A stretch of 45,237 nt of DNA, taken from NCBI GenBank assembly GCA_031256895.1, contig JAIRPR010000165.1, positions 1 through 45,237 on the forward strand. The letters are read 5' to 3'. The DNA comes from Coriobacteriaceae bacterium (GTDB lineage Bacteria > Actinomycetota > Coriobacteriia > Coriobacteriales > Eggerthellaceae). The notes beneath the pieces were generated by a model, which saw nothing but the letters and a program-made list of their open reading frames with translations, had not been told where the DNA came from and ran no database searches. Position numbers and translations under genes: made by a program. Of the stretch, positions 27,913 through 45,073 are shown in pieces (position 1 is the stretch's first letter; each line of letters opens with the position of its first letter).

Positions 27913-28809
27913 TCATTCCCCCCAGAGTATGCCGACATTCGGCTGGTTTGCAGCCTGTGGCCCCAAGGCGTCAGGAGCAGCCGGGGGGTTCTCTTCCGCA
28001 GTCAGCTCGATGGCAACGATGTCGCGGGCGAAGTAGCGTGCCGCCGTGGATCCAAGCCACAGCTGGTTGCTGCACCCGAAGGCCTCGCCCATGGCTTCCC
28101 CGTTCGCCTGCGTGACTATGATGCTGTAGTGCTGCCTGATGTAGCGCAAGGGAAGGCTTATGCGGTAGCCGTCGGCAGAGACGAAGGTGATGGTGTTGAC
28201 CCCTTGCTCGGGTGCCGCTTCTTTGATAAGGGCTGCCAACATGAAGCCCTGAACAGCCACATTGGCACTGGCGCGCCCATCGGCGGGATTTCCGGCACAA
28301 GTGCAGCCCAAGACCTTGGAAGCGGGAGCCTTCTTCTCGAGGTCGGCGACCAAGGCGGTGTAGGCGTTATCGACATCGCCGCTGACCCGTATGCTGGTTA
28401 TTGCGGAAACCTGATGGGCTGGCTCACCAGGCGCAACAGCCAGAGCCTCTGGTGCGCCGTTCGCCTTGCCCTGGGCTTCGCCAGCCGTGTGCGCAAGTGC
28501 AGGCTCGAGCAGCGAAAGGCCGCAGATATGCTGTGAAGCCTTGTACAGGGAAGGGGCAAGGCTGCTGTTGTCCAGCTTGACGCCCTGGTCGTACCAGAAC
28601 GTCCCTTGTATGTTGGTGACATCCACCGTGGCCGGGGCAGCCACCGCAGTGTGGTGCGCCTCTGCTTCGTGGTGTGCCAGGGCATTGCCCTGTGGGGCAT
28701 CATGCCCCGGGGTTGTGGGCGAGGCAAGGGCTGAAACGATGGGCAGCGCCGAGACCGCCAAGGCCCCGCTTGCGGCGAGGCCGATTATCTTTGAGGGAGA
28801 AGCTTTCAT
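27913..28809 (-). CDS. Secreted sulfite-oxidase-family (Oxidored_molyb-like) domain protein
   Basis: AGGAGG SD and an N-terminal signal-like segment MKASPSKIIGLAASGALAVSALPIVSALA. LGCTCAGNPADGR resembles the Mo-ligand Cys block (CAGNRR) of sulfite oxidases. FVSADGYRISLPL and LWLGSTAARYFARDIVAIEL match the fold. Ends at an in-frame TGA. Confidence 0.65.
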   Translation of the reverse strand: MKASPSKIIGLAASGALAVSALPIVSALASPTTPGHDAPQGNALAHHEAEAHHTAVAAPATVDVTNIQGTFWYDQGVKLDNSSLAPSLYKASQHICGLSLLEPALAHTAGEAQGKANGAPEALAVAPGEPAHQVSAITSIRVSGDVDNAYTALVADLEKKAPASKVLGCTCAGNPADGRASANVAVQGFMLAALIKEAAPEQGVNTITFVSADGYRISLPLRYIRQHYSIIVTQANGEAMGEAFGCSNQLWLGSTAARYFARDIVAIELTAEENPPAAPDALGPQAANQPNVGILWGE

Positions 28810-28823
28810 GGTTCTTTCGCCTC

Positions 28824-30428
28824 CTAGCTTGCTTTTGCGTTGAACAGGACTTCGATGGGGTCTTGGGTCACATGCCCGTTGGTCGATACCGCGCGGACCG
28901 AAAGCACGTAGCCGGAATCGACCTCGGGGGTGAAGGCGAAGTGCCAGATGACCCAGCGGGCCTTATCGACTTGTGGGGTATCGAATCGTGTCCAGGTCGT
29001 GCCACCGTCCATCGAGAACTCAAGGGCGCCAATCGTTTCATCCCAGCCAGAGGCATAGCCCGTGAAGGTATACGGTTTGCCGGTCGTTATCACGGTTCCT
29101 TCAGTGAAATCGAACAGTCCGACGTTCGGTTTGTTCACGTAATCGTTCTCGTCGGTGTAAGGCCAGCCGCTGGGGGTGTAGAAGTTGCCGTCGCCTGATT
29201 CTTGTGGCCAACCGTTCCATTCATGCAGCTCTGCAGCTTCGTCTTGGGTGTTCACGATTATCTCCGAGACCTCCTTCACGCTGATGGGGGCTGCTGAGCC
29301 GGGAACATACAGCGTGACGGGGTAGCCATGCTTCCACATGAGGGGCGCCCCGTCCATCTCGTAGGTGATGTAACCTTCTGTGAAGTTGCCCATGACCATG
29401 CTTTCGGTGAAGCCGTCAGGGGCTATGGCGGTGAATGCTCCTGCGGTGGGGCTGATGCCCGCATCAGCGAACAGGGCGCTCAAGGGAATGCCGGTTATCT
29501 TGGTGTTGCCGATGAAGGGCCCGCCGATGGGGTTCAAGGTGCATTGCAGGGTGAAGGGCACGGTCTTGCTGGGGAACTTCTCGATAAGCTCGGGCAGGGT
29601 GTAGGTGCGCTCCTGAGCGACCGCGCCGCTTACGGTGATGGTCCAAGTATCGAACATCTCCTGGTCAAGTGGGGTGTTGTTGGCGTTGTTCTCGGTCCGC
29701 ATATAGTCAAGGTCGAAATAGTCCCAGCCGAAATCGAACAGTTCCTCGGCGCTTATCAGCTTGTCCTGGTCGTATGAGAAATCGCCTTGGACATCGCTTA
29801 TCGGCGTGATGCCGCGCAGCTGCCGGTACTTCGCTTCGTCCCAGAGCTGCATGCCCTCACCGCTTCCGGTGCCCACATGGCAGTTCCAGCAATCGGCACG
29901 GTCGTCCTTCTCGTGTATGCCATGCACCAAGGACCCGAACGAGTATTGGTTGGTCAGGTACCCATAGCCGAAGGTATGGCAGTCGATGCACATCTGCACC
30001 GTGATCTGGATGCCCAAGGCATTGCTCAGGTCGGTGTGGCTGTATTCCATGTTGTTCAAGGTGTTCGCCAGATCCTCGTGACAGGCATAACAGCCTTTTG
30101 CATCGGCGTTCAGGTAATAGGTGTTGTACGGTATGTTGGTCGCGGGGGTATGGTAGGTGTACGAGCCGTCAAGCGTGGTGGTCACGGTGCCGTCCTCGGT
30201 GGGGGTGCGTTGTATGCGCGTCCCATCCGGCAAGGTCTTCACGATGGGGTTGTACGGGTCGGTCTGGGGCGCCAACGACACCACTGGCGGCGTTGCATCC
30301 GGCTTTGCCACAGGCTTTTCGCCTTCTGTCTTCCCTGGCTGGGGGGAGCAGCCGAACGCGGCAAGCATCACCAAGGCGCAAAGGCCTGTCATCACTCCCA
30401 TCAAGAGCCATTTCTTCTTTCTTCTCAT
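28824..30428 (-). CDS. Extracytoplasmic (possibly lipid-anchored) trihaem c-type cytochrome fused to a sulfite-oxidase-family molybdopterin domain and a C-terminal Ig-like domain
   Basis: Start placed at ATG 30428 (GGAGAAAGGGG upstream). Signal peptide MRRKKKWLLMGVMTGLCALVMLAAFGCS. Three CxxCH motifs (CYACH, CIDCH, CWNCH). Then TWTITVSGAV..ERTYTLPELIEKFPSKTVPFTLQCTLNPIGG...ITGIPLSALF...APDGF...YEMDGAPL...HGYPVTLYVPG, typical of the Oxidored_molyb fold. The track ORF adds 77 upstream codons. Confidence 0.8.
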   Translation of the reverse strand: MRRKKKWLLMGVMTGLCALVMLAAFGCSPQPGKTEGEKPVAKPDATPPVVSLAPQTDPYNPIVKTLPDGTRIQRTPTEDGTVTTTLDGSYTYHTPATNIPYNTYYLNADAKGCYACHEDLANTLNNMEYSHTDLSNALGIQITVQMCIDCHTFGYGYLTNQYSFGSLVHGIHEKDDRADCWNCHVGTGSGEGMQLWDEAKYRQLRGITPISDVQGDFSYDQDKLISAEELFDFGWDYFDLDYMRTENNANNTPLDQEMFDTWTITVSGAVAQERTYTLPELIEKFPSKTVPFTLQCTLNPIGGPFIGNTKITGIPLSALFADAGISPTAGAFTAIAPDGFTESMVMGNFTEGYITYEMDGAPLMWKHGYPVTLYVPGSAAPISVKEVSEIIVNTQDEAAELHEWNGWPQESGDGNFYTPSGWPYTDENDYVNKPNVGLFDFTEGTVITTGKPYTFTGYASGWDETIGALEFSMDGGTTWTRFDTPQVDKARWVIWHFAFTPEVDSGYVLSVRAVSTNGHVTQDPIEVLFNAKAS

Positions 30429-31087
30429 GTTTCCCCTTTCTCCTCTTCTCTGGTCGATGGTGCCTCTGAGACACCAGGACAGGTCGGTATGACCTTTGCG
30501 TGCCCCAGGGCATCCCACCCGACGACTCATGCTTCTCAGGCTTTTCAGGCGTTCCCCGAACACGGCACCTTGCGAGGATAAACCTTGCCCCAAGGCAAGA
30601 CTCAAGGGGCAAGATTGGGCGAAAAGCGTGCGGATGCAGCTTCCCAAGGCGCGAAGCACTCGACTTCGGGGGTCATCCAGGCAAGCGTTTATGCAGGTGC
30701 TGAATCGAAGGGAAAGGGCTGGCCGTCTATCCTATCCTTATTGGAAGATAAAAAACTGCCCTAGGGGAAAGGATTGTTTGGGGTTTTGTTGCATCGCCCA
30801 CAGCGGCCGAACATCCACCGTGTAGCTCCTTTGATCGAGCCCCCAGCATACCTGCTCCATGCCGTTGGGCGAAAGCGGCTTGCGGGCGTGCCCTGCCTCT
30901 GCTAGCATGCCCCTGTTCGAGTCGCGGCCACCCCAGGAGGACACGCCCGGGGCGGCCGGTGATAGGCCTGCCGGGGAAGGCTGGGCTGCGGCGCCCCTCA
31001 GCGCTGCCGCCGCAGTCCCCCCTGAAGGCTTTGTCTGTGCCGCCCTTCTCGGAAAGGGGCGGCTTGAGTGGTGAGAGGAATGGCCTT

Positions 31088-34000
31088 ATGGAGGCTGACA
31101 GAACGCGGAGCCGCGGCCTGCGCCCGAGGGGCGCTCGGCCAGGGGGCCGGCTTGGGGGCAGGAAGCCCGACGAAAAGGACATGACGGGCCATAGCGCCCC
31201 GGGCAGCGCCATGGGCAGGCCTGGGACCCCGGGCAGCGCCATGGGCAGGCCCAAAGCCCCGCACGAGGCTCCCGGAAGGCGGCGGCCGGCGGCTGCCCGC
31301 AGGGCGCCGGCCTATGGGCACGGTGCCCATGGAGGACAGGCGCACAAGGCTTGCGCCCGCAAGGCGGCATGCTGCGGCACGGTGCCCGTGACAGGGAAGG
31401 GGATGGCGGCGCGCCGGCATGGCGCCCATGGAAGGGCCTGCGGCGCCCATGCCCCCTGTGGGGGCGGCCTCGCCCTGGCGCTCAGGCTCGCCCTTGCCCT
31501 GGGCGGCTTCGCCCTGGCTGCGCTCCTATGGTCCGCTCTCACGGGCTTGCTCTCGCTCGCCCTGGCCACCTTCGCCATAGGGGCATTGGGCGTCTCGCGC
31601 ATACAGGCGGCAGTGGGCGCCTTCGCGCTGGCGGGCGCCCTGGCCTTGGCGCCCCTCCTGCTCCATGCGGTGTTCCTGGCCGCCATGCGCGGCTACCGCG
31701 GCGGCGCCTGGGCCCAGGCGCGCGGATGGGCGCATCGGGCGGGGGCGTCGCTTGCGCGCTTCTACCCCCGCGTGCTGGCCCGCCTGGCCTGCTGCCTGGC
31801 TGCGGGTGGCTGCATCACCCTGGGGACGGGCACGCTGCCGCTGCCCTGGCCGTTGCAGGCGGCCGGGTGCGCCCTGCTGGCCGCGACGGGCGTAGCAGCC
31901 CTCGTCCTGGTCGGGAGGCTCTACCTAAGGCCCGGTGCGCGCCCAGGCCCAGGCGGCGGCGTGCGCCTCCCCGCACGCCCGAGGACGGCTGCCGCAACGG
32001 GGGGCGCGCCCGGCCGGGCGGTGCGCGCACTGCTCTCGGTCGCGCTCGCCGCAAGCCTGCTGCCGTCCGGCCTGCCGTCCCGGGCGCCGGGCGCCGGGGC
32101 TGTAGCCGCCGTGCCACAGGCCCAGGCGCCGGCGGCAGCCCCCTTGGCGCCCGCAGGGCGGCCTGCGGCTCCCAACTCCTACGAACCCTCGGGCAGCGGG
32201 GACGGGCAGGGGGGCATGCCTGCCGTGGCGCCTGCCGCCATCGCCGCGCCCGAGGCGCCGCAGGGCGCTTTGGCAGAGGTCGCCCACGACCGCTACTCGC
32301 GGACCTACCTCAACCGCGACGGCACCTACACCACCCGGGTGCAGTCGGAGCCCCTGACCTTCACCGACGTCGACGGCGTGGAGCGCGACATCGACAACAC
32401 CCTGGTTCTGAGGGACGGCGCCTACACGAACAGGGCGAACGGCTTCTCGGTGACGCTCCCTTCGGAGGGGGGCGCCGTCACGGTTGAGAAGGACGGCCTC
32501 ACCCTGGCCGCACGCCCGCTCTTCGCCACGCTCAAGGGCGCCTTCGCCCAGGGCAGCGCCGTGCGCTACAACGGCGCGGCACCGGGCATCGACCTCGAGT
32601 ACCGCGTCTGCGGGGGCTCGCTCAAGGAGGACGTCGTGCTTGCCATGCCGACCGGCCTGGAGGCCTTCGAGTACGTCCTGGAGGCCCCGGGGGCGGCCTT
32701 CTTCGCCGAGGCCGGAAGGGTGCTCGTCTTCCACGGCGGCAGCCTGGGCCCTGACGGGCGGCCCCTTGCGGGCGCGGAGCCGGCCCTCGCCATAGACGCG
32801 CCCCTGATGCGGGACGCACAGGGGCAGGCCTCCACGGCCATTGTCCTGGAGCTTCGGGAGGCCCCGGCGGGCGCTGCGGAAGACGGAGCCCAGGCGCCCG
32901 GCGGTGCGGCCGACGCGCAGGGCGCAGCCGCGGCAGCCGCCCCGGAAGGCGGGCAAGCCGGCGCCCCGGCCGCTGCCGCAGGCGGGGCGGCCGCCTCCAT
33001 CGGCACCGCCATCTGCGGCCCCGTGGGGGCCCCAGGCCCCCTGCCCGGCACGCCTGGGGGCGGCGCCGTCGTGCCCTGTGCCTACCGGGACGCCGCCCTT
33101 TTGCGCATAGCGCCCGACCGGGAATGGCTCATGGCGCCGGGGCGCGCCTACCCCGTGACCATCGACCCCTCCCATGCGCTCGCCGGAGGGAGCATCTCGC
33201 AAGGGGTCGTCCAGGCCTTCGCGGGCTGGTCGTCGGGGCCTGACCTCGAGCACAGCGTGCCGTACCTCTACGTGGGCCTCGAGGACGGCAGCCTCGTGGG
33301 CACGCCAGGCGTCACCTACGGGCAGTCCTGGTCGTACGTGAGGATAAACGACGTCGCCCCCTATGTCGCCGGCCTGCCCGACCGGGCTGTCCTGTCGGCC
33401 ACGCTGGCGGCGTACAAGTACGCAGGCGCCCCCGGCAGCGCCGGCGCCATGGTGGACGCGAGGATGGTGTGCGCACCGTGGGGGGGCGACGGGCGGCACA
33501 CCTGGAACAACCGCCCGGCCGGGCCGGGAGGCCTCGCCTACCTCGACAGCCAGGCCGTGCCCCAGGGCAAGGGGTGGATGCGCTTCGACGTCACCGACGC
33601 CTTCAAGGAATGGCGGCGCGACCCTGCGGCGAACCGGGGCGTCATGCTGACGCCCCGCAGCGAGGCGCAGCCTGCCGTGTGCCTCTCGGGCACGGGCAAC
33701 GCCCATGGGGCGCAGGCACTCTACATCGACCTCTCATGGACGGTGCCGGGGCCGGTCGACGAGGGGATGGCCCTTGCCGCCCCGCAGGTGGCCCTGCGCC
33801 CCTTGGCCGACAAGGGCCCCGCCCCCGCCCAGGCCTTCGCCGGCCTGTTCGCCGACGGCCTCGTCCGTCCGGCGCTCAGGGTGGACTACGTTCTCGAGCG
33901 CCTGCCCGCAGGGCCGGGCGGCACGGGCGCGCCTGCGCTTGCCGTGGCGCAGGGCGCCTACCCCAAGGCCGAGTACGAGCCCCTCTATCCGGACTCGGAC

Positions 34001-37000
34001 CCCTTCTTGGGCGAGGCGCCCTTCACGCTGGGCTACCACGGCCTGTCCGAGTCCAACTGGCAGACAGGCCTCTTCCCCGCAGCCCTGATAGGCCTCGACA
34101 CGTGTTACCGGGTGCGGGCCCGGGGCGTCCGCGTGCCGGACGCGTGGGCGAACCCTGGAGGCACTGCCGAGGAGACCCCCTGGGGCGCCTCCGACGCGTT
34201 CCTGGTCTACCGGGTGCGCGAGCAGGACGCCATCCCCTACCTGGCCGCTCACTACGGGGTGCCCCTCGCCACGGTCGCTGCCGACAACCGCTTGGGCGAC
34301 AGCCTGGCCATGCCGGGCGACACCCTCTTCATCAGGGGCCCCCGCACAGACGCCCCCTACACCCGCCCCTTCGAGCCGACGCTGGAGCACAGGCGGGCCA
34401 TAGTCTATGCCAACATGGGGCGCTCGCAGACGTCCGAGTTCGACATGGAGCCGGTGAACATGTGCACCGGGAACTTCTACCTGGAGCAGACGGACGCGGC
34501 CTCGCTCGACTACGGGCGCGAGTTCCGCATCGCCCGGTCCTACAACGCGCTCGCGCCCCAGGCGGCTGGGCCTTTCGGCAGGGGCTGGTCCAGCGTGCTC
34601 ACGCAGTCGCTCACCGCCCGGGCGGACGGGGGCGTGGCCTACACGGGCGAGGACGGGCGCCTGGTGATGCTCACGCCCCAGGAAGGGGGTTGGGCAGGCC
34701 CCGACGGCAGCGGCTACGTCCTTGAGAGCCACGGGGGCGCGGGCACGGTGCCCGGAGGGGACGGCGCGGACGGCACGGGCACGGGCGGGGCGGGAGCCGG
34801 GTCGGGAGGGTCGGGCACTGGCACGGGTGGGGCGGGCGCCTACACCTTGGAAAGGCCCGACGGCATCACGCTCACCTTCGATGCCTGGGGCATGCTGGCG
34901 GCCGTCACGGACCTGCACGGCCTTGCCGCCACGCTGGACCGCGACCAGGACTCCCGCCTGGTCAGGGTCACAAGCCCCGCAGGGCGCGTGTTCGGGGTCG
35001 GCACCGACGCCTCCGGCCGCATCAGCCGCATCGACCTGCCCGACGGCGCTGCCCTTCGCTATTCCTATGACGAGCAGGGGTACCTCGTCTCTGCCACCGA
35101 TGCGGACGGGGCCACCGTGCGCTACGAGTACGACGGGAATGGGCAGATGAGCGCCTGGTACGACGGCACCGGTGCCCGCGTCGCCGCCAACGCCTACGAC
35201 GGGCAGGGCAGGGTGGTCGCGCAGACGGACGCCCTGGGCAGCACCTCGACGGTCGCCTACGGGGAAGGCGTCACCGTGCTGACTGGCGCAGACGGCTCCG
35301 AGACGGCCTATGGGTACGACGGGCTCTTGCGGGCGACCTCCGTCACGCGCGGGGGGGCTGCCGTCCACAAGTCCTACGACGCGCAGGGGAGGCTCTCCTC
35401 TGAGACGGACGCCCTGGGCCGGACGGCTGCGTACTCCTACGACGAGGGCGGCAGGCTCGTCCGCGTGACGCGCGCGGACGGCTCGTTCCAAGAGGCGGCC
35501 TATGACGGGCGCGGCCTGCCCCTTAGGGTGCGCGGCCTCGACGGCGCCGTGACAGAGAACGCCTACGACGACGACGGCTGCCTCGTGGCCGTCACCTATG
35601 CCGACGGCGCCTCCCGGGGCTTTTCCTACGACGCGCTCGGCCGCGTGGCGTCGATGACCGACGAGGAGGGCGCGACCACCACGTTCGCCTACGATGGCAC
35701 GGCCTCCCTCACGGTGAGGGATCCCCTGGGCAACGAGACGGTGTGCCACTACGACGCGATGGGCCGCCTGGTCACCGAGACCGGCCCCACTGGCCTTGAG
35801 CGCCGCACCTCCCACACCCCGGGCGGGAGGGTCGCGGGCATCGGGGGGAGCGGCGGGGCGTCGGCGTCGTACACCTACGATGCCGCCGGGAGGTGCATCG
35901 CGGCGACCGACGCGCGGGGCACGGCCACCACCTGCAGCTATGATGCCGCGGGAAGGCCCGTCCTGGTCACGGGGCCGCTCGGCCAGAGGATTGCCTACAC
36001 CTATGACGCCTGCGGGAACAAGGCGTCCGAGGCCGACGCCCTGGGCAACACCACCCGCTACTCCTACGACGCGTTCGGCCGCCCGGTCGCCGTGACCGAC
36101 GCCCTGGGCGCCACCGAGGCCTTCGCCTACGACGCGGCAGGAAGGGTGTCCTGGTCGGCCGACAAGGCAGGCAACGTCACGACCTACGGGTACGGCCCCA
36201 CCTCGGACGTGCCCGAGCGCGAGGAGGGGCCCCAGGGCGTCACAGAGCGCACCTTCGACGCCGAGGGGCGCGCCGTGCACGTCCGGCTGCCCGACGGCAG
36301 CGCCCACAGCTACGCCTACGACGCGCGCGGGCGGCTCGTGTCCGACACCGACCAGGCGGGGCTTGCCATAAGCTACGCCTACGACCGGGCAGGCAGGCTC
36401 ACGGCGGCGTCCGACAGCGCGGGAAGGTCCTTCTCCTTCGCCTACGACGCGGCCGGCCGCCTCACCGCCATGGGCGACCCCTTGGGGCGCCGGAGCGCCT
36501 ATGCATACGACGGCGCCGGGCGCCTCGCCACGGCCACGGCGCCCGGCGGCCTGGTGACCGCCTACGCCTACGACGCGGAAGGCAGGCTGGCGTCGGTCAC
36601 CCGCCCCGACGGCACAACGGAGTCCTACGCCTACGACGCGGCGGGCGCCCTTGCCTCAGCCACGGACGCCGCCGGCAACACCACCCTGTTCCACTACGAT
36701 GCCGCAGGCGCCCTTGCCGCGACGGTCGACGCCCTGGGCACCACGACCACCTACGCCTACGACGAGAGGGGGCTGCCAGTCCTGGTGAGGGGCCCCTTGC
36801 AGGAGGCGACCGCCTTTGCCTACGACGCGCTCGGGCGCCCGGTGGCCGTGACCGACGCGCTCGGCAACACCACGCAGGCCTGCTACGACGCACGGGGGCT
36901 CGTCGTCAAGGTGACGGCCGCGGACGGCACGTGGCAGTCATACGGCTACGACGCCGCAGGGCGCCTCGTCCAGGCAGAGGACGGGGCGGGCCTCCTGGCA

Positions 37001-40000
37001 AGGCACTCCTACGACGGGCTCGGCAGGCTCGTGCGCACGGAGGGCCCGCAAGGCCTCCTGGCCGCCTACGCCCACGACCCCTACGGGCGCACCGTCTCGG
37101 AGACCGACGCGCTCGGCAGGAGGAGGGAGCTCTCCTACGACGCCTGGGGCGGCCTTGTGGAGGAGGTCGGCTTCAACGGGGATCGGACGTCCTACGGGCG
37201 CGACCTTTTGGGGCGCGTCGTGCATGTGTCGAGCAGCACAGGCCCGGCCTTCAGCTACGCCTACGACGAGGCGGGCAACCCCTCCGAGCGCACCGACGCC
37301 TCCGGGCGCCGCGAGTCGTTCAGCCATGACGCGCTCGGGCGCGTTGTGCGGGCGGTAGACGCGGCAGGGCAGGAGCGCACCTTCGCCTACGACGCGGTAG
37401 GCAACCCCGTCCTGGAGGCCGACCAGCTGGGCGCCGTGTGGCAGGCGGGCTACGACGCGGCCGGCCGCCTCGTGTCATGGACGGATGGAGAGGGCGCGTC
37501 CACCGCCTATTCCTACGACCTTTCAGGCAACCTGACGGCAGTGACCGACCCGGAGGGGGGCACGTGGGGGTATAGCTACGACGCGCTCGGGCGCCTCGTG
37601 CAGAGCACCGACCCCTTGGGGCGTGCGACCTCCTTCGCCTACGACGCGCTCGGGCGCACGGCGGCGGTGGAAAGCCCCGCAGGCGGCGTGACCTCCTTCG
37701 CCTACGATGGCCGCGGCAACCCCGTCAAGGAGACGGACCCCCTGGGCTACGTGACCGCCCGGGCATACTCTCCCGAGGGCTGGCTCTTGTCGGCCACGCT
37801 GCCGGGCGGGCTCGTGCAGGGCTACGAGCACGACCGGATAGGGCGCGTGACCCGTGAGTACGACAACGCGGGGCGGTCGGCCTCCTACACCTATGACGCA
37901 CGGGGCGACCTGGTACGGGTGGCCGACCAGGACGGCGCGACGGCCTCCTTCGCCTACGACCGGGCCCACCGGCCTGTCGTGCAGACGGGCCCCGGGGGCG
38001 CGCGCACCCTGTACTCCTACGACGAGAGGGGCAACCTGGCCGCCGCCGCGCTGCCGGGCGGCGCCCGCTACGCCTACACCTACGATGCGCTCGACAGGCC
38101 GGTGACAGGCACCAACGGCATCGACGCGCCCTTCACCTTCTCCTACGGCGCACGGGGCGGCCTGGCCTCGGCCGCACAGGGGGAGCTGTCGTGGTCCTGG
38201 TCCTACGACAAGGCGTCGAGGCTGACGGGCGCCACAGCGCCCGGCGGGGCGTCCGAGGCGTGGGAGTACGACGGCCGCGGCCTGCCCGTCTCCCACACCG
38301 GGAGGGACGGGGCGGCCATGCGCTACACCTACGACGCCGCGCGCCAGCTGACGGGCGCGACCGACGCCCTGGGCAACGCGAGGACATGGTCCTATGACGC
38401 GGGCGGCAACCTGGCTAGCGCCACCGACGCGCTGGGCAACACGACCGCTTACTCCTATGACCTGCGGGGCAGCCTGGTGCAGGTGCGCGACCCCCTGGGG
38501 CGCACCAGCGAGTACGCCTGCGACGCGATGGGCAACACCGTGTCGGCGCGCCGCTTCGCCGCCGAGGGCGCGCCTGCCGCGCCTGCCGCTGGGCAGGGCC
38601 TAGGCCAGGGCATGGGCTGGTCCTACGGCTACGACCTCCATGGCAACCTCGTGGCGGCCACGTCCCCGACGGGCGGCACCGAGCGCTTCACCTACGACGC
38701 CGCCTCCCGCCTGATAGGCGCGACAGCCCCTTCCGGGAGGTCCGTGTCCTACCGCTACGACAGGGCGGGGCGGCTTGCCGGGAAGGGCTACAGCGACGGC
38801 AGCACGCCCGTCGCCTACTCCTACGACCAGGCAGGGAACCGGGTGGCGATGGAGGACGCCACAGGGGCGAGCTCCTATGCCTACGACGCCCTCGGCCGTC
38901 CGGCCTCCCTCACGCAGGCGGACGGGCGGTCCTTGGCCTATGCCTACGATGCCTACGGGCGCCTGGCCAGCGTCGCCTACCCTGGCGGCAAGGAGGTCTC
39001 CTACGCCTACGGCCAGGACGGCTCCATCTCGGCGGTGGGCGACTCGCAGCTGGGCGAGACCCGCTACTCCTATGACGCGGCAGGCAGAATGGCCGGCTGC
39101 GAGCGCCCCGACGGGACGGCCACCTCCTACACCTACGACGCCCTCGGGCGCCTGGAGCGGCTTGTGAACACGCGCGGCGGCGTGCTGCTCTCTTCCTTCG
39201 CCTACACCTACGACGCCGAGGGGCGCATCGCCACAGAGGGCTCCTGGCAGGCGCCCGCCCAAGGCGCCGGCGCCCCCAGGGCCGCTGTGCGCAGCTTCTC
39301 CTACGACGCGGCAGGGCAGCTCTCCGGCTGCACCGAGGACGTGGGGGGCGACCGTTCCACGACCTCCTATGCCTACGACGCCATGGGCAACCGCGTGTCG
39401 GAGACGGTCGAGGCGGGCGGGACGGCCACAAGGGTCGAGAGCTCCTACGACGCGCAGGGGCGCCTGGTGCGCCAGCACGATAGCGGGAGCGGCGCCGCCA
39501 CCTCCTTCGAGTGGGACGCCGACGGCAACCTCGTGGCCAAGCGCCGCGGGGGCGGGGGCGCGGCCGCGGCGGCCACGGGCTACCTCTACGACGCCGAGGG
39601 CCGGCTTGTGGCCGTGAGCCGGGACGGGGCGCTTGTCATGGCCGCCGCCTACGACGGCGACGGCAACCGGGTGCTCCAGGCCTACCGGCAGCCGGCGCCT
39701 CTCGGCGGCGCCCCCGGGCTGCCGACGACGCCGGCGCCCCTGCCCCTGCCCGCGCTCGGGACGGCTGCGGAGCAGCCCCCTGCGGCAAATGCCGGCCGCA
39801 CGCAAGCACAGGGCTTCGCCGGCCATGCCTTCGAGTACGGCATGGGGCTTGGCCTGGCAAGCCTTGCCTGCGCCCCCGCCCTGTCGTTCGCCCCCTTGGC
39901 CCAGCACCTCTTCACGGAGGCCTTCAACGCATGCGCCGCGTTCTGGGGCGACTGGCAGCGCGGCGCCGCGCCCGCAGGCCCAGGCGGCGAGGCCGGCCCG

Positions 40001-41881
40001 GCCATGGGCAGCGCCGGCCTTCCCGAGTATCCCTTCTGCGGGATGTCCTGCCCCCCGGCTGTGCAGGCGCAGGGTGGCGAGGGCGCCTCGGCCGACGGAG
40101 GCGCCTCGGCCGACGGCGCGGGCGGCGCCATGCGCCTCGGCTACGGGCTGTCCTGCTACCTGAACGACACCAGCTTCACCGACGTGCAGGTGGCCATGGA
40201 GTTCGACGGGGAGGGCAAGGCCAAGGCGTCGTACACCTACGGCAATGGGCGCATCATGGCCACGCTGCCCGACGGCGCCATGAGGTCGTACCTCTACGAC
40301 GGGCGGGGCAGCGTGGCCCAGGCCTTCGAGACAGGGGCGCCGGGGTCGCCCGCCGCGGCCCAGGGCCAGGCGCAGCCCCGCGCCCAGGCACCGGGCGCCG
40401 TCGCGCACTCTTACGCCTACAGCCCCTTCGGGCAGGCCTTGGGCGCGGACCCCTACCTGCCCGCGTTCACGTACAACGCCGAGGACCACGCCCCCGAGGC
40501 GGGGCTCACCTACCTGCGCGCCCGCTACTACGACCCTGCGGCAGGCTGCTTCACCTCCAAGGACGCCTTCCTCGGCCGCACGGGCCAGCCGGCCTCCCAG
40601 AACCGCTTCGCCTTCGCCCAGGCAGACCCCGTGAACAACCAGGACCCCTCGGGGCACGCCGTCACGGCCAACGCCTACGAGCGGGGCATGGAGGCAGCAG
40701 GCGGCATCAACGAGATATACAACTTCTACGTGGGCCGCACCCTGCAGGACTCCTACAACAGCGCGAACGCCGCCTTCCGTTCCCAGCTCGGCAATGCCTA
40801 TGGGGCAGACCACACCTCCCTCGAGGCGGTGAACGCCATAGCGCAGGTGTCCCAGGCGTGCGCCAACCGCTACATAAGCGCGGGCGCGGCAGCCGCCGGG
40901 CGGGCAGGCTCATCATGGGGCTGTGCCCCCGGCGCGATCACCGGCCAGGCCGTCGCCGCCTTCTCTGCCGACGTGGGCGCCGCAAGGGCCACCGTGAACT
41001 CGCTCATAGCCAGCGTCAAGGCCAACAAGCAGCACCAGTACGAGGAGTACCGGGCCTACCTCGAGGAGCAGGCGGCGCTCGCGTACCGGGCGCAGGCACA
41101 GGGCCTGGCCGCCCTGGACCTCGTGCTGAGGGGCATGTACGGCCCTGCGAGGGGCTTGGGCGGCGCTGCCGCCGCAGGCATCATGGGAGGGATGGCGCCG
41201 CTCAGCCTGTTCGAGGCCGAGGCCATGGCGGGGCTTCGGGTGGTGCGCCCGTACTGGGACTTCAGCTACCCGGGCGGGATGCACGCCAAAGTCGTGGGAT
41301 ACCTGGCAGGCAAGCATGGCCTTGAGCAAGAACAATCGATAACCAAAGGGAGCAGGTACGACCTGTACAAGCCTTTGACGAACGAGGTATGGGAGGTGAA
41401 GCCCGTCACCTACATGCCAGGCTCCCACCTCCATAGCGCCCTGGTGGATCAAATGAAGAGGTACAAGGTGAACGGAGTAAAGGAGGGGCATCCCCTCGGG
41501 AACGAGAGCCTGGTCCTGGACGGCTACCAGGTGAGGACCTACAGCACGGATCATACGGGATACGTCTATTACAACTTCTGGCGCGACGAGCGCCCGCAGG
41601 AGCAGCAGGCACGCCAACGCGAGCTGGTGAGCGAGAAGAGCCTGCGAAACGTCGTGGTGAACCCCTTCAAGAATGCCACGCTGGGCTACTACGAAGACTA
41701 CTACGCGACCCATCCTGCTGCCACGGTCACCTGGTCGGACGGCCTGATAGTCACGGCAGGGATAATCACCATCGTTGTGGGCGGTACCATCATCGGCCTT
41801 TCGGGAGGGGTGGGCTCACCGGCAGGAGTCGCCGCCATATGCGCTGGGTCGGACATGGTTGCCGTGGGCGCCATGGCCTGA
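31088..41881 (+). CDS. Giant Rhs/YD-repeat polymorphic toxin (N-terminal polytopic region, DNRLRE-like and LysM-like modules, Rhs shell, variable C-terminal toxin)
   Basis: Single open frame 30959-41881. The start is uncertain (ATG 31088 with GAGAGG upstream; alternatives 31181 and 31403). The Rhs N-plug is PVNMCTGNFYLEQTD...FGRGWS. I counted more than 60 YxYDxxGR-type repeats by hand. The Rhs core end is YLRARYYDPAAGCFTSKDAFLG...ADPVNNQDPSGH. The LysM-like segment is YRVREQDAIPYLAAHYGVPLATVAADNRLGDSLAMPGDTLFI. Confidence 0.92.
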   Translation: MEADRTRSRGLRPRGARPGGRLGGRKPDEKDMTGHSAPGSAMGRPGTPGSAMGRPKAPHEAPGRRRPAAARRAPAYGHGAHGGQAHKACARKAACCGTVPVTGKGMAARRHGAHGRACGAHAPCGGGLALALRLALALGGFALAALLWSALTGLLSLALATFAIGALGVSRIQAAVGAFALAGALALAPLLLHAVFLAAMRGYRGGAWAQARGWAHRAGASLARFYPRVLARLACCLAAGGCITLGTGTLPLPWPLQAAGCALLAATGVAALVLVGRLYLRPGARPGPGGGVRLPARPRTAAATGGAPGRAVRALLSVALAASLLPSGLPSRAPGAGAVAAVPQAQAPAAAPLAPAGRPAAPNSYEPSGSGDGQGGMPAVAPAAIAAPEAPQGALAEVAHDRYSRTYLNRDGTYTTRVQSEPLTFTDVDGVERDIDNTLVLRDGAYTNRANGFSVTLPSEGGAVTVEKDGLTLAARPLFATLKGAFAQGSAVRYNGAAPGIDLEYRVCGGSLKEDVVLAMPTGLEAFEYVLEAPGAAFFAEAGRVLVFHGGSLGPDGRPLAGAEPALAIDAPLMRDAQGQASTAIVLELREAPAGAAEDGAQAPGGAADAQGAAAAAAPEGGQAGAPAAAAGGAAASIGTAICGPVGAPGPLPGTPGGGAVVPCAYRDAALLRIAPDREWLMAPGRAYPVTIDPSHALAGGSISQGVVQAFAGWSSGPDLEHSVPYLYVGLEDGSLVGTPGVTYGQSWSYVRINDVAPYVAGLPDRAVLSATLAAYKYAGAPGSAGAMVDARMVCAPWGGDGRHTWNNRPAGPGGLAYLDSQAVPQGKGWMRFDVTDAFKEWRRDPAANRGVMLTPRSEAQPAVCLSGTGNAHGAQALYIDLSWTVPGPVDEGMALAAPQVALRPLADKGPAPAQAFAGLFADGLVRPALRVDYVLERLPAGPGGTGAPALAVAQGAYPKAEYEPLYPDSDPFLGEAPFTLGYHGLSESNWQTGLFPAALIGLDTCYRVRARGVRVPDAWANPGGTAEETPWGASDAFLVYRVREQDAIPYLAAHYGVPLATVAADNRLGDSLAMPGDTLFIRGPRTDAPYTRPFEPTLEHRRAIVYANMGRSQTSEFDMEPVNMCTGNFYLEQTDAASLDYGREFRIARSYNALAPQAAGPFGRGWSSVLTQSLTARADGGVAYTGEDGRLVMLTPQEGGWAGPDGSGYVLESHGGAGTVPGGDGADGTGTGGAGAGSGGSGTGTGGAGAYTLERPDGITLTFDAWGMLAAVTDLHGLAATLDRDQDSRLVRVTSPAGRVFGVGTDASGRISRIDLPDGAALRYSYDEQGYLVSATDADGATVRYEYDGNGQMSAWYDGTGARVAANAYDGQGRVVAQTDALGSTSTVAYGEGVTVLTGADGSETAYGYDGLLRATSVTRGGAAVHKSYDAQGRLSSETDALGRTAAYSYDEGGRLVRVTRADGSFQEAAYDGRGLPLRVRGLDGAVTENAYDDDGCLVAVTYADGASRGFSYDALGRVASMTDEEGATTTFAYDGTASLTVRDPLGNETVCHYDAMGRLVTETGPTGLERRTSHTPGGRVAGIGGSGGASASYTYDAAGRCIAATDARGTATTCSYDAAGRPVLVTGPLGQRIAYTYDACGNKASEADALGNTTRYSYDAFGRPVAVTDALGATEAFAYDAAGRVSWSADKAGNVTTYGYGPTSDVPEREEGPQGVTERTFDAEGRAVHVRLPDGSAHSYAYDARGRLVSDTDQAGLAISYAYDRAGRLTAASDSAGRSFSFAYDAAGRLTAMGDPLGRRSAYAYDGAGRLATATAPGGLVTAYAYDAEGRLASVTRPDGTTESYAYDAAGALASATDAAGNTTLFHYDAAGALAATVDALGTTTTYAYDERGLPVLVRGPLQEATAFAYDALGRPVAVTDALGNTTQACYDARGLVVKVTAADGTWQSYGYDAAGRLVQAEDGAGLLARHSYDGLGRLVRTEGPQGLLAAYAHDPYGRTVSETDALGRRRELSYDAWGGLVEEVGFNGDRTSYGRDLLGRVVHVSSSTGPAFSYAYDEAGNPSERTDASGRRESFSHDALGRVVRAVDAAGQERTFAYDAVGNPVLEADQLGAVWQAGYDAAGRLVSWTDGEGASTAYSYDLSGNLTAVTDPEGGTWGYSYDALGRLVQSTDPLGRATSFAYDALGRTAAVESPAGGVTSFAYDGRGNPVKETDPLGYVTARAYSPEGWLLSATLPGGLVQGYEHDRIGRVTREYDNAGRSASYTYDARGDLVRVADQDGATASFAYDRAHRPVVQTGPGGARTLYSYDERGNLAAAALPGGARYAYTYDALDRPVTGTNGIDAPFTFSYGARGGLASAAQGELSWSWSYDKASRLTGATAPGGASEAWEYDGRGLPVSHTGRDGAAMRYTYDAARQLTGATDALGNARTWSYDAGGNLASATDALGNTTAYSYDLRGSLVQVRDPLGRTSEYACDAMGNTVSARRFAAEGAPAAPAAGQGLGQGMGWSYGYDLHGNLVAATSPTGGTERFTYDAASRLIGATAPSGRSVSYRYDRAGRLAGKGYSDGSTPVAYSYDQAGNRVAMEDATGASSYAYDALGRPASLTQADGRSLAYAYDAYGRLASVAYPGGKEVSYAYGQDGSISAVGDSQLGETRYSYDAAGRMAGCERPDGTATSYTYDALGRLERLVNTRGGVLLSSFAYTYDAEGRIATEGSWQAPAQGAGAPRAAVRSFSYDAAGQLSGCTEDVGGDRSTTSYAYDAMGNRVSETVEAGGTATRVESSYDAQGRLVRQHDSGSGAATSFEWDADGNLVAKRRGGGGAAAAATGYLYDAEGRLVAVSRDGALVMAAAYDGDGNRVLQAYRQPAPLGGAPGLPTTPAPLPLPALGTAAEQPPAANAGRTQAQGFAGHAFEYGMGLGLASLACAPALSFAPLAQHLFTEAFNACAAFWGDWQRGAAPAGPGGEAGPAMGSAGLPEYPFCGMSCPPAVQAQGGEGASADGGASADGAGGAMRLGYGLSCYLNDTSFTDVQVAMEFDGEGKAKASYTYGNGRIMATLPDGAMRSYLYDGRGSVAQAFETGAPGSPAAAQGQAQPRAQAPGAVAHSYAYSPFGQALGADPYLPAFTYNAEDHAPEAGLTYLRARYYDPAAGCFTSKDAFLGRTGQPASQNRFAFAQADPVNNQDPSGHAVTANAYERGMEAAGGINEIYNFYVGRTLQDSYNSANAAFRSQLGNAYGADHTSLEAVNAIAQVSQACANRYISAGAAAAGRAGSSWGCAPGAITGQAVAAFSADVGAARATVNSLIASVKANKQHQYEEYRAYLEEQAALAYRAQAQGLAALDLVLRGMYGPARGLGGAAAAGIMGGMAPLSLFEAEAMAGLRVVRPYWDFSYPGGMHAKVVGYLAGKHGLEQEQSITKGSRYDLYKPLTNEVWEVKPVTYMPGSHLHSALVDQMKRYKVNGVKEGHPLGNESLVLDGYQVRTYSTDHTGYVYYNFWRDERPQEQQARQRELVSEKSLRNVVVNPFKNATLGYYEDYYATHPAATVTWSDGLIVTAGIITIVVGGTIIGLSGGVGSPAGVAAICAGSDMVAVGAMA

Positions 41882-41927
41882 GACAATGTACAGAAAAGCT
41901 AGACAGGAAGAAGAAGGGAGCAAGGCC

Positions 41928-43184
41928 ATGCTCAGGAAGTTCAGGGTGTACGAGTTCAAGGTGCCGAACAGGCAGGAGTACCGAAGTCTCATAAGGGGGC
42001 TCGCGGGCGGCTACGCCCACGGCGGGCTGCTGTTCGAGGTGTACGGCCTCGACTGGTTCGAGGGCGCCCCGCCGCCACTCGAGCAGATGGTGGCATCCAA
42101 CAAGGTGATAGGCAGGAACAAGGGGCTCGGCAGGTACGCCTGCGCCCACAGCTTCACCTATCAGGCGGGGTCGGCGCCGGGGCCGGACGGCACGGTGGAG
42201 TTCACCGACCATCAGAGCACGTCCCTGGCGCTCTCCAACCTGGGGGGCGCCTGGGACGAGCCCAACCCCTGCGTGCCGGAGGGCGATGTGGGCTTCCCCG
42301 AGCTCGATGCACTCCTGCGCACGCTCACCAGGAGGTCCTTTTCTACGCTGCTCTTCGTGATCGACGGCATCCCCTGGTTCGGCGCCCCTGCCCGCCCCGC
42401 CACCTACGGCCTCAGGAAGGCGAGGGGCAAGTACGAGTGCGCCCTGGGCTACCTCTCGCCCTCGATCGCCGTGTCGGTCATAGGCTACGAGAGGAGCTAC
42501 ACGGTGCGCGCCTGCTTCGAGGTGACCCCGCCCGAGGGCGCAGGCGGCGAGCCCGACGAGTCGGCGCACCTCGCCCGCCTTGTGGCCATGCTGGGCAGGC
42601 CCGCCTCGGCCACGACGCACTACGCCCCCGGCGACGAGGCCGACAGGCCTTTGTGGGACCTGGCCGGCAGGCGCTTCGAGGAGGAGATGGCGCGGGTGAG
42701 GGGCTGCCACGACGAATGGTGCCGGGGGCTGCCGCACCGGGTGGAGGGCAAGCCCGTGCCGCCCTACTACCTGACGCCGCCCTACACGAGGCCCGAGAAC
42801 GTCACCAAGGCGACCAACAAGGCGCTGGCGCAGGCCATGAAAGACGCCCCATGGAGGAAGGACCCCCGGCCGTCTGAGGACGGGCAGTGCTTCGTGCGCC
42901 GCGACCGCTTCGGCAACTCCTTCGACCTGCGTGTCTTCATCAGGAAAGAAGGGTACTACGTGCAGACGGCGCTGGACTATTGCGGCGCGATCGACCCGAC
43001 GAAGATGCTCAAGATGTGGATCGGCCTCGGCTGCAAAGAGATGTACGACACGGCCGAGGTGCCCCTGTTCTTCGAGAACGTGCTGGCCTTGGCAGGGCGC
43101 TACTTCGACGCCCTGGAGGAGGCGTACGGGCGGGTGATGGACGAGACGGGCGCCCTGGCCTACTTCCACCCCGACCTCGCCTGA
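41928..43184 (+). CDS. Hypothetical protein; candidate cognate immunity protein of the Rhs toxin tip
   Basis: First ORF downstream of the Rhs stop on the same strand. ATG 41928 has GGGAG 7 nt upstream (an alternative ATG at 41886 has no SD). 418 aa with no TM segment and no motif I recognise. The track version (41775) overlaps the Rhs 3' end and is probably too long. Confidence 0.6.
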   Translation: MLRKFRVYEFKVPNRQEYRSLIRGLAGGYAHGGLLFEVYGLDWFEGAPPPLEQMVASNKVIGRNKGLGRYACAHSFTYQAGSAPGPDGTVEFTDHQSTSLALSNLGGAWDEPNPCVPEGDVGFPELDALLRTLTRRSFSTLLFVIDGIPWFGAPARPATYGLRKARGKYECALGYLSPSIAVSVIGYERSYTVRACFEVTPPEGAGGEPDESAHLARLVAMLGRPASATTHYAPGDEADRPLWDLAGRRFEEEMARVRGCHDEWCRGLPHRVEGKPVPPYYLTPPYTRPENVTKATNKALAQAMKDAPWRKDPRPSEDGQCFVRRDRFGNSFDLRVFIRKEGYYVQTALDYCGAIDPTKMLKMWIGLGCKEMYDTAEVPLFFENVLALAGRYFDALEEAYGRVMDETGALAYFHPDLA

Positions 43185-43454
43185 TGCCCGAGGCCGCCCG
43201 GAGCCCCCGCCCGCCAGCCAGCGGGGGCTCGCCCAACCTGCGGGAGCAGCCTTCGGCCAGAGGGCTGTCCTGCCAGCAGGGGAGCCATCGTTGTCAGCAC
43301 AGGGTGCGCCGTCCCGCCTGCCCGCTAGGAAGATCTCGCTTGGTGCCTTCTCCTGTGCGTCAACCAACCTGTCGCCACGAGACTTTCCTTCGCGGCCAGG
43401 ATCGAGGTGCGCAACGAGCAACAACCGGATAATTTCCAAAGTAACCGCAACACT

Positions 43455-45073
43455 GGGGGGTGCTGAAAAAACTTGGACTCAGAAGAGACAGGAGATTGTC
43501 CATGCACACGCAAGAGCAACGTCAAAGAGCGGTCGAGGCGTTCCTCGAAACCGGCTCGTATGCGGCTGCTGTCAGGGCCATAGGCTGTGGGTCGCGATGG
43601 TCTGTGCAGCGCTGGGTCAGCGACTACGGGAAAGACGGCCATGTGAAGGCAGGGCGCACCAAATGGCTCAAGTTCCACTGAGGGGCAGAGGCTTGCCGCA
43701 GTGAGCCACTACCTGGGCAACGGGCATAACGCCTCTGAGACCATAAGGGCGCTGGGCTGCCCCAGCCACACGCTTTTAGGCGCTTGGACAAAAGGGATCG
43801 CGCCAGAGGCTGTAAAACCAAGGAAGGACAGGGTAGAATGCTCCTTGGAGCAAAGGACCGCCGCCGTGGCCTCGCTATGCGACAAAGAGCGAACCGTGGC
43901 CGATGTCGCAAGGGGGACAGGGGCACACAAGGCAGGCCTGCACGAATGGAGAGGACAGCTGCTCGGGAAGGAAGTGGATGCCGTCTTGCCGGACAATGAC
44001 GAGGCCCCATCGGCCGAGAACGAGGACGACCTGCTGGGACGGATCGCCGCATTGCGCAAGGAGAAGGAGGCCGTCGACAGGGAGCTGTACCTGGCGAGGC
44101 TTGAGCCCGCAGTCCGGCAAGGAGCGCTCGAACTGATAAAAAAAGACCCGGGCATCGGCCTGGAGAAGCTGGACAACAGAGAAAGGACAGTCCTTGCCGA
44201 TGCCCTGAAGACGACGTTCCCCCTGAGTGACCTGCTGCCCATGCTGCGTCTGCCCAAGAGCAGCTACTACTATCAAAGGGGCGCGATCGCGAGAGGCGAC
44301 AAGTACGCGGTATTGCGCCAAAGGGTGCGCGTTGTGTCCCAGGACAGCGGCGGGTGCTACGGCTACCGCCGCATACACGCCGTCATCGTCCGTGACGGCA
44401 CGGTCGTCTCGGAGAAGGTGGTGGCCAGGCTGATGGCAGAGGAAGGCATGGCTGTCAAAGGCAGGAAGAGGCGCAGGTACAGCTCCTATGCAGGGGAGAT
44501 ATCGCCAGAGGCCCCCAACCTCCTGGAGCGCGACTTCCATGCCGGGGCGCCCAACGACAAATGGCCCACCGACATCACGGAGTTCCGCATACCGGCGGGC
44601 AAGGCCTGTCTCTCGCCGATCATAGATTGCTTCGACGGGCTTGCGGTGTCATGGACGATAGGCACAAGCCCCAATGCCGAGCTTGTGAACACGATGCCCG
44701 ACAAGGCCTTGGCGTCCCTCGGCGAAGGCGAGCTGCCAAAGGCCCACAGCGACCGAGGCTGCCATTACCGCTGGCCGGGATGGATCGGTCGGATGGGGGG
44801 CGCGGGGCTTGAGCGCTCCATGTCAAAGAAGGGCTGCTCGCCCGACAACGCTGCATGCGAGGGGTTCTTCGGGAGGCCGAAGGACGAGTCCTTCTACGGC
44901 AGGTCATGGAAGGGCGTGGCCATTGATGGGTTTGCCGCAAGGCTTGATGCCTCTATACGATGGTATAATGACGTGCGCGTCAAAAAGTCATGGGGCTGCC
45001 TCAGCCCCATGGAGTACAGGCAAAGCCTGGGTCTGGCGGCCCAGGCGAGTCCAAAAAAATGTCCGCACCCCCC
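43455..45073 (+). mobile_element. IS3-family insertion sequence (about 1.6 kb)
   Basis: Imperfect terminal inverted repeats: left GGGGGGTGCTGAAAAAACTTGGACTC (43455-43480) versus right GAGTCCAAAAAAATGTCCGCACCCCCC (45047-45073), sharing the outer GGGGGGTGC and inner TTGGACTC blocks. The interior encodes HTH and DDE transposase segments. No target-site duplication could be identified. Confidence 0.7.
43502..43681 (+). CDS. IS3-family transposase N-terminal HTH fragment (OrfA part 1)
   Basis: ATG 43502 with AGGAG upstream. MHTQEQRQRAVEAFLETGSYAAAVRAIGCGSRWSVQRWVSDYGKDG is an IS3 OrfA-type HTH. It ends at TGA 43679-43681, while a second, similar HTH continues in the +1 frame. Confidence 0.7.
   Translation: MHTQEQRQRAVEAFLETGSYAAAVRAIGCGSRWSVQRWVSDYGKDGHVKAGRTKWLKFH

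Follow-up and report, generated by a model that had tools for sequence, protein, structure and literature searches.

The 45,237-nucleotide stretch analysed here, contig JAIRPR010000165.1 of a Coriobacteriaceae bacterium (hereafter the window), contains a gene for a giant Rhs/YD-repeat protein whose N-terminus consists of a multi-helix membrane module, the head. On profile evidence this head appears to be the fused equivalent of a small membrane protein that is otherwise encoded as the operon partner of related toxins, followed by the toxin's own signal peptide, which is now internal. An operon-partner membrane protein fused to the N-terminus of a WapA-type toxin, and recurring in many lineages, appears to be new, and no mention of the fused accessory-toxin variant was found in a literature search that was not exhaustive. 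The locus as a whole is best explained as a WapA-type, Sec-exported Rhs contact toxin with a fused accessory head and a candidate immunity gene, horizontally acquired and lying beside an IS3 element, a reading to which a probability of roughly 60% is assigned. The domain content, the homology between head and stand-alone proteins, the base composition and the genomic context on which it is built were established directly. An earlier note on this DNA, made from the sequence alone, had held that the export of the protein was not explained by the described systems. That view is not upheld, as the module order agrees with that of Streptococcus suis WapA-CT1, which is exported through Sec, and the polytopic block of the note is homologous to the stand-alone accessory protein and followed by a signal-peptide-like helix.

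Residues are numbered from the longest open reading frame (ORF), in which residue 1 is the codon at 30959 and Met149 is the ATG at 31403. A HMMER scan with residues 430–1160 found 1836 relatives with E ≤ 1e-3, of which even the best shares only 58% identity. The nearest relatives, at 57–61% identity, were found in metagenome-assembled genomes (MAGs) of Coriobacteriales/Coriobacteriia, followed at 39–43% by Firmicutes MAGs (Agathobacter, Eubacterium and other Clostridia), and metagenome scans supplied seven additional close loci. Genome and metagenome collections scanned with single proteins gave no match. The word-index protein search with residues 159–1164 gave none either, its candidate list being swamped by Ala-rich words, and with residues 700–1160 it returned one 258-residue fragment. 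Homologues fell into two classes. Class (a) carries a classical N-terminal signal peptide and then the same N-domain as the window protein, while class (b) carries a polytopic head of 200–330 residues and makes up ~23 of the top 100 clusters of related proteins, with every Coriobacteriia relative found falling into it. The in-frame fusion was present in at least seven independent loci (L002, L003, L012–L015 and L019) with a G+C content of 32–63%. In L019 the fused-head Rhs gene (2395–8259) lies on a metagenome contig of 32% G+C and is 26% identical to the window in the N-region; the fusion is therefore not limited to high-G+C lineages. Where upstream sequence was available for class (a) loci, nine of 11 had a gene for a polytopic protein of 180–280 residues directly upstream on the same strand, and its stop codon overlapped the Rhs ATG by 4 nt in four of the eight loci measured.

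Profile–profile alignment of the fused heads with these stand-alone proteins using hhalign gave a probability of 97.7% over 136 columns (E = 2.1e-12, score 86.5), compared with scores of 15.7 or less for the controls (one reversed and 22 column-shuffled). A hidden Markov model (HMM) built from stand-alone proteins only matched six fused Rhs N-termini that had been left out of its building, with E values from 2.6e-17 to 2.8e-7 among 3707 ORFs. In the other direction, an HMM made from fused heads, with the window excluded, recovered both the window (E = 3.3e-19) and stand-alone proteins (E down to 4.9e-17). Because the profile–profile match and both cross-HMM searches agree, the head is interpreted as the fused counterpart of the operon partner. 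A 'Rosetta stone' fusion of this kind provides independent comparative evidence that accessory protein and toxin work as a one-to-one pair at the same site in the membrane. As a separate observation, in two Coriobacteriales MAGs the fused Rhs gene is immediately preceded by a gene (L002 6923–8290 and L003 7011–8450) for a 455–479-residue protein with two N-terminal transmembrane helices and 13 MORN repeats, which has no counterpart in the window.

The hydrophobic helices of the head span residues ~167–373. HMM and hhalign results delimit an accessory-like membrane module of four transmembrane segments (residues ~171–326; 31469–31936, + strand), in which the motifs LAPLLLHAVF, RFYPRVL and GRLYLRPG are collinear with LAPVxLHAxF, K/RxYYxxLL and YRxYxPK/R of close relatives. 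After an Arg-rich loop, hydropathy and alignment to fused homologues identify an internal signal-peptide-like helix, RAVRALLSVALAASLLPSGL (residues 353–373; 32015–32077, + strand), which aligns with RTxLAxLxxxGSxPSxW of the relatives. In nearly all members the last head helix of the relatives ends in AWA, AYA, AFA or similar, endings that mark signal peptidase I sites. The window protein has no N-terminal signal peptide of the WapA type, and its signal-like helix instead follows the four-helix head in alignment with these AxA-ending helices. Arg/Lys-rich loops lie before helix 1 and after helices 2 and 4; read by the positive-inside rule, their placement therefore fits a five-helix topology with the N-terminus inside, the C-terminus outside and the Rhs ectodomain outside the cell. 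An AlphaFold2 model of the head from 19 sequences showed a helical core with predicted local distance difference test (pLDDT) values of 83–94, and together with hydropathy this bore out the proposal of the earlier note that a polytopic block, rather than a simple signal peptide, forms the N-terminus. Only G48, P84 and G135 of the head are near-invariant, with no invariant polar residue and no catalytic motif. Two labels considered for the head were abandoned. SecF-like was dropped for want of a Pfam SecD_SecF match or a Foldseek match in the PDB, and a PrsW peptidase was rejected on the absence of any match at E ≤ 10 for the window or E ≤ 1 for the relatives and on the near-invariance of G, P and G alone.

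The same helices could be read as a permanent, teneurin-like membrane anchor, in which the head and fifth helix stay uncleaved, the Pro/Ala-rich linker behind them spans the wall, and the likeness to the accessory protein reflects ancestry without a role in export. The weak AxA-type sites of the window and the ~65 residues of Pro/Ala linker after its last helix would suit such an anchor, as would the finding that S. suis WapA-CT1 remains in the wall fraction and is absent from the supernatant (PMC12704120). However, relatives keep clear AWA/AYA/AFA sites past their last helix, which would be unexpected in a protein that is never cleaved, and the stand-alone protein of S. suis is needed for the toxin to be present in the wall fraction, which is more than anchoring (PMC12704120). 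An uncleaved anchor is considered unlikely on balance, and the helix at residues 353–373 is preferentially viewed as an internal signal for Sec.

The head lies within one frame that stays open for 3640 codons (30959–41881, + strand), and the uninterrupted 10.9-kb ORF described in the earlier note was recovered intact; by our own estimate about one stop per 60 codons would be expected at such base composition. Codons 1–148 (30959–31402, + strand) form an open, in-frame and GC-rich leader. Codon periodicity is weak across this Arg/Gly/Pro-rich segment, with G+C at the first, second and third codon positions (GC1, GC2 and GC3) of 0.70, 0.70 and 0.80, and GC3 is 0.82–0.92 from about codon 150 onwards. 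Homologues of like N-terminal architecture start 15–30 residues ahead of the first hydrophobic helix, which is the position of Met149, and AGGGAAGGGG is found just upstream of ATG 31403. Because the homologue starts and the onset of codon periodicity coincide there, ATG 31403 was taken as the start, giving a preferred Rhs/WapA-type toxin gene of 31403–41881 (+ strand) with its domain matches and a product of 3492 residues. The leader is then probably untranslated, and the Arg/Gly/Ala-rich head that had been counted as part of the protein most probably does not belong to it. ATG 31088, with GAGAGGAA upstream, is a possible alternative start. No promoter or terminator was found in a scan of 30600–31500. 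The leader also contains a tandem 30-nt duplication at 31196–31255, reading in frame as GSAMGRPGTP / GSAMGRPKAP.

A start further inside the frame would remove the head from the protein altogether. In-frame GTG codons at residues 335 and 355 are situated just ahead of the signal-like helix and could give an ordinary Sec signal peptide, with the upstream frame open by GC-rich chance or holding an accessory gene that was joined to it by a sequencing or assembly frameshift, and the frame does look non-coding over at least its first 148 codons. Yet the GC3 of the head is 0.86, the head matches the profile built from outside sequences in frame at E = 3.3e-19, and the same in-frame fusion recurs in the seven or more independent loci and the ~23 top-100 clusters described above. 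Were initiation internal, the DNA would nonetheless encode an accessory-like product. A head outside the protein is therefore regarded as very unlikely, and translation from ATG 31403 through the head is retained.

All modules beyond the head are encoded on the + strand. A Pro/Ala-rich linker of ~65 residues, read from the translation (32078–32275), leads into a conserved, beta-rich N-domain that begins EVAHDRYSRTY (32276–32878), is matched by many homologues over query positions 2–214 and corresponds to no Pfam family. Between this N-domain and the following module lies a second low-complexity linker, rich in Ala, Gly and Pro (32879–33073; residues ~641–705), and linkers of this kind with their Ala-rich words are the likely cause of the swamped word-index searches. 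The DNRLRE/CBM96-like module (residues 789–908; 33323–33682) matched NF033679 with 41.9 bits against a cut-off of 34, and CBM96 matches covered this region in 16 of 16 aligned homologues. A LysM-like module (residues 1084–1125; 34208–34333) was sub-threshold (PF01476, E = 0.011, 16.1 bits, cut-off 20.9), with LysM found at the equivalent position in nine of the 16 aligned homologues at a best E of 1.7e-7. Next comes DUF6531, the Rhs N-terminal plug (residues 1164–1236; 34448–34666; PF20148, E = 4.2e-16). DNRLRE and LysM thus precede DUF6531 as they do in WapA-type proteins, the window's own LysM being below threshold.

The YD-repeat shell extends over 34826–40417, as defined by RHS_repeat (PF05593, E = 3.8e-244, 37 stretches) and YD_repeat_2x (TIGR01643, 32 stretches). 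The count of YD motifs was 53 by a strict and 65 by a relaxed definition, where the earlier note had given more than 60, with a spacing of mostly 21 residues and a DNA repeat period of 63 nt. Towards its C-terminal end the shell has a stretch at ~39300–39870 (residues ~2780–2970) that is largely Pro/Ala-rich, partly hydrophobic and without regular YD motifs; ~130 residues of it are 48–53% conserved at the equivalent position in the relatives L003, L013 and L015. The Rhs repeat-associated core (residues 3154–3233; 40418–40657) matched TIGR03696 at 61.2 bits (cut-off 32.5, E = 1e-16) and contains YYDPAAG and a terminal DPSGH (residues 3229–3233), the predicted autoproteolysis site. A YD repeat array, a DUF6531 plug and a core with a DPxG[LH] motif are thereby all present, which supports the prediction that the locus encodes an Rhs/YD polymorphic-toxin protein. 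The earlier note had proposed this architecture, and Pfam and NCBIfam HMMs now agree with it for the repeats, plug, core and DNRLRE. Its domain order also stands by HMM for DNRLRE, DUF6531, the YD repeats and the core up to DPSGH, with the LysM-like module significant in the homologues only. Among the protein matches SpvB, TcdB and TcA of Tc toxins were absent, and no such neighbour occurs in the window. The window protein gave no NHL, TTR or FN-plug match and only a partial TEN_YD-shell match.

The C-terminal region after the core comprises 407 residues. Its first ~135–155 residues past DPSGH form a conserved pre-toxin region (40658–41113, + strand) with 44–64% identity to L003, L015, L013, P0007 and P0005, and the remainder, the variable toxin tip (41114–41878, + strand), is unique. 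No Pfam, NCBIfam, PDB or word-index protein match was found for the tip. Motifs read by eye, namely RYDLY at 41354 (residues 3466–3470), EVWEVK at 41384 (3476–3481) and VDQMKRY at 41444 (3496–3502), resemble in their order the D...(D/E)xK...QxxxY of RecB-like PD-(D/E)xK nucleases, a by-eye reading without HMM support, and the tip is probably a nuclease of this type. From 41723 the tip runs into a tail of ~50 residues rich in Gly, Ala, Val and Ile (residues 3589–3640; 41723–41878), hydrophobic and with GxxxG-like spacing, which is not what usually follows a putative nuclease domain and could be a membrane-insertion or translocation element. The gene that follows (41928–43184, + strand) encodes a protein of 418 residues, with ATG 41928 as the likely start behind a GAGGAAGGA-like Shine-Dalgarno sequence. 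Its GC3 of 0.93 in the + frame, against 0.63 for the antisense ORF, is a strong coding signal. No family, PDB match or homologue was found for this product, which by its position is the candidate immunity protein for the tip.

These features can be assembled into a mechanism, in which membrane topology, export through Sec, cleavage, toxicity and immunity are predictions. Translation would begin at ATG 31403, and the first ~180 residues would enter the membrane as a four-helix module whose N-terminus faces the cytoplasm. Such a module would be the fused counterpart of the small, separately encoded and translationally coupled accessory protein upstream of signal-peptide-type relatives, and by position that upstream gene would in turn be the counterpart of the 'SecF-like' protein needed for export of S. 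suis WapA. Past the Arg-rich cytoplasmic loop, the fifth helix would act as an internal signal/anchor that starts Sec-dependent translocation of the ~3100-residue ectodomain, after which cleavage there by signal peptidase would be possible. The Pro/Ala linker, N-domain, CBM96/DNRLRE and LysM-like modules would keep the protein in the cell wall, with the DUF6531 plug and YD shell encasing the C-terminal toxin and the Rhs core freeing it at DPSGH. Contact with a competitor may then lead to delivery of the conserved pre-toxin segment and the variable tip, probably a PD-(D/E)xK nuclease, from which the downstream 418-residue protein would shield the producer.

Several observations weigh against this explanation. 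The possible cleavage sites of the window, GAGA/V and AQA/P, are weaker than the AWA/AYA of the relatives. The HMM built from stand-alone proteins misses the Ala/Leu-rich head of the window at E ≤ 1e-3, such that the link to them runs via the fused-head profile, and two signal-peptide loci (L017 and L020) have no adjacent accessory gene. No Pfam/NCBIfam family, SecD_SecF included, is matched by the head of the window protein or by the stand-alone proteins, the AlphaFold2 head model found no PDB match by Foldseek (best E = 6.6), and the S. suis 'SecF-like' protein is equated with the accessory family by gene position only. The window has no sortase B, unlike the S. suis loci; by-eye inspection of sequence upstream in Firmicutes homologue loci also revealed no sortase. 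At the other end of the protein the toxin fold is unpredicted, a single-sequence AlphaFold2 model of the tip being unusable at pLDDT 35, and the tip has a GC3 of 0.78 against 0.93 for the putative immunity gene, unlike usual tip-immunity pairs. The pairing of the two is uncertain because the composition of the 418-residue gene fits the Rhs body and not the tip.

A more far-reaching and rather doubtful proposal is that the fused head represents a dedicated accessory family unrelated to SecDF, which serves in cis as a conduit or gate for exporting Rhs cages of ~350 kDa across the monoderm membrane. If true, WapA-type toxins would possess their own export device, sometimes covalently attached, and a distinct secretion route would exist beside Rhs delivery by the type VI and type VII secretion systems (T6SS and T7SS). 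To our knowledge the export and delivery of WapA-type Rhs toxins of 300–400 kDa is poorly understood, and the upstream membrane protein of S. suis is the only functional hint. The accessory family is without a Pfam or NCBIfam model, and the fusion yields a sequence profile with which members can be found. Bacterial YD-shell proteins with membrane-spanning N-termini evidently exist, which bears on the discussion of teneurin origin.

Base composition sets the locus apart from its surroundings. In 1-kb windows G+C was 72–76% across 31001–41000 and 51–62% in the rest of the window. At the left edge it jumps from 56.5% (30700–30899) to 69.5% (30900–31099) in 200-nt windows, then stays at 66–85% within the island until ~41300, and it is 55–62% beyond that point, inside the variable C-terminal part. 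The Rhs body had a GC3 of 0.92 and the downstream gene one of 0.93, compared with 0.66–0.79 (~0.74) in eight flanking genes. Together the G+C step and GC3 define a compositional island of 30900–43200, assigned to no strand, that holds the Rhs gene and the downstream gene. The high G+C is more than an amino-acid effect of the YD repeats, because the unrelated downstream gene shares it. The Rhs genes of relatives exceed their own flanks by at most ~9 points, and those of L002 and L003 lie below theirs. An excess of 15 points in the window, common to the downstream gene, therefore argues for acquisition from a much GC-richer donor and indicates that the locus is a cassette gained by horizontal transfer. 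The foreign composition noticed earlier was thus confirmed. As an entire cassette, Rhs gene plus downstream gene, that is compositionally foreign (GC3 0.92 against ~0.74) and has an insertion sequence (IS) element beside it, the locus constitutes a clear case. No tRNA gene that could mark an integration site occurs in the window. Exact records of the Rhs protein or of the downstream protein, each searched with two starts, were not found, and the flanking aminotransferase was recovered on one other contig only, of 2.2 kb.

The IS3-type transposase begins at ~43440–43460, roughly 250–275 bp past the stop of the downstream gene at 43184, in accord with the IS3 element that had been reported downstream. 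Its OrfA (43460–43681) carries a helix-turn-helix domain (HTH_28, 43460–43678), and OrfB has HTH_Tnp_1, HTH_21, rve and rve_2 in another frame (43647–45236), the arrangement characteristic of the IS3 family; this frame is open through to the window end. Candidate terminal inverted repeats at 43437–43456 and 45158–45177 (20 nt, 75% complementary) imply a candidate element of ~1.74 kb, placed at 43437–45177 on the + strand with approximate ends. At the left edge of the island two adjoining molybdopterin-oxidoreductase-domain proteins (27913–30659, - strand) are transcribed away from it, the larger of which (611 residues) also has weak multihaem cytochrome c matches. The flanks more broadly encode flavoprotein reductases with twin-arginine translocation (TAT) signals and molybdopterin oxidoreductases with multihaem motifs, in line with a probable actinobacterial host of the Coriobacteriia type. 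Ribosomal protein S1 from the window points the same way, its best match, a collinear one, being a bS1 chain of 479 residues and four domains, the length of the mycobacterial form. Ribosomal protein S9 had its best PDB match in Firmicutes and was less informative about the host. Further away, a C-5 cytosine methylase gene (4563–5642) overlaps an HNH endonuclease gene (5639–6247); at 51–52% G+C and a GC3 of 0.50, well under the 0.66–0.79 of host genes, this pair is a second cassette of foreign composition, here of lower G+C. Beside it, in a stretch of 49–53% G+C, a 477-residue protein with Schlafen/AlbA_2, HATPase_c_4 and winged-helix domains (833–2266) may be a defence-type gene.

Among all sizeable ORFs of the window, scans found no PAAR, VgrG, Hcp, LXG/WXG, two-partner-secretion or sortase gene, in keeping with the earlier statement that PAAR, VgrG, LXG/ESX and two-partner-secretion genes are missing from it. 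The accompanying description of an island without recognisable delivery machinery stands for T6SS, T7SS and two-partner-secretion genes only, given that a recognisable partner appears to be present, fused to the toxin. The window is 45 kb of a genome, and a specialised system encoded elsewhere might export the protein, with the head as a recognition or processing module. T7SS-associated Rhs toxins are said to exist in Gram-positive bacteria, as with the Listeria Rhs toxin. The type VII route is nevertheless at odds with a protein that has no LXG or WXG100 match and a 45-kb window without EssC/EccC. For PrsW-type processing there is a precedent in RHS toxins of Actinobacteria, including Streptomyces, that carry a PrsW membrane peptidase domain at the N-terminus, for which a role in extrusion and processing was proposed (Zhang et al. 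2012, PMC3482391). These share with the window protein an N-terminal polytopic membrane domain on an RHS-repeat toxin in Actinobacteria. They differ in that PrsW has ~8 transmembrane helices and conserved catalytic motifs, whereas the window head has four plus one helices, no PrsW match and no catalytic motif, with G48, P84 and G135 alone near-invariant. As the architecture and operon partner fit the Sec-type WapA class instead, export by a specialised system is thought highly improbable.

Other known Rhs and YD proteins resemble the window protein in part. In prePAAR/PAAR Rhs effectors of the T6SS, N-terminal transmembrane helices stand before the delivery domain and the Rhs cage releases its toxin by autoproteolysis; the window protein likewise combines an Rhs cage with N-terminal transmembrane helices and predicted autoproteolysis at DPSGH, but the window lacks a PAAR/prePAAR motif and T6SS genes, and its host is probably monoderm. 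Teneurins also have a YD shell around a C-terminal toxin-like domain and are membrane-anchored with the shell extracellular, though their anchor is a single helix and the NHL, TTR and FN-plug matches are missing from the window protein. Bacterial teneurin-like proteins have been described as carrying signal peptides without an intracellular or transmembrane part (PMC13018210, 2026).

The WapA-type toxins of Gram-positive bacteria are the closest in design. Bacillus subtilis WapA is a wall-associated Rhs/YD tRNase toxin with a Sec signal. It shares with the window protein the Gram-positive YD contact-toxin design, in which an N-terminal signal for export (predicted for the window protein) and a part that binds the wall precede a C-terminal toxin, and the next gene confers immunity, for which the window has a candidate. 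It differs in its plain cleavable signal peptide and other wall-binding repeats, and we know of no accessory membrane module in this system. S. suis WapA-CT1, exported through Sec according to a 2025 study, has 3158 residues with a Sec signal, an N-domain of unknown function, DNRLRE, LysM, DUF6531, two Rhs segments, and a pre-toxin and toxin (PMC12704120). For killing, both its signal sequence and the product of the gene immediately upstream, a small polytopic protein termed 'SecF-like', are required, and sortase B contributes (PMC12704120). The window protein is of the same size class (3492 residues), has the same order of signal (here a signal-like helix), N-domain, DNRLRE, LysM, DUF6531, Rhs, core, pre-toxin and putative toxin, and is followed by a gene in the immunity position. 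In both the toxin is tied to a small polytopic membrane protein that lacks a large external domain, in the window as an in-frame fusion whose equivalence to the S. suis protein is positional only. The differences are that the host there is a Firmicute and here a member of the Coriobacteriia, and that here the membrane protein is fused at the N-terminus, ahead of the internal signal-like helix. The matching module order, including the conserved pre-toxin, therefore places the predicted protein in the WapA-type class, with export by the Sec route, as for the S. suis class, most likely.

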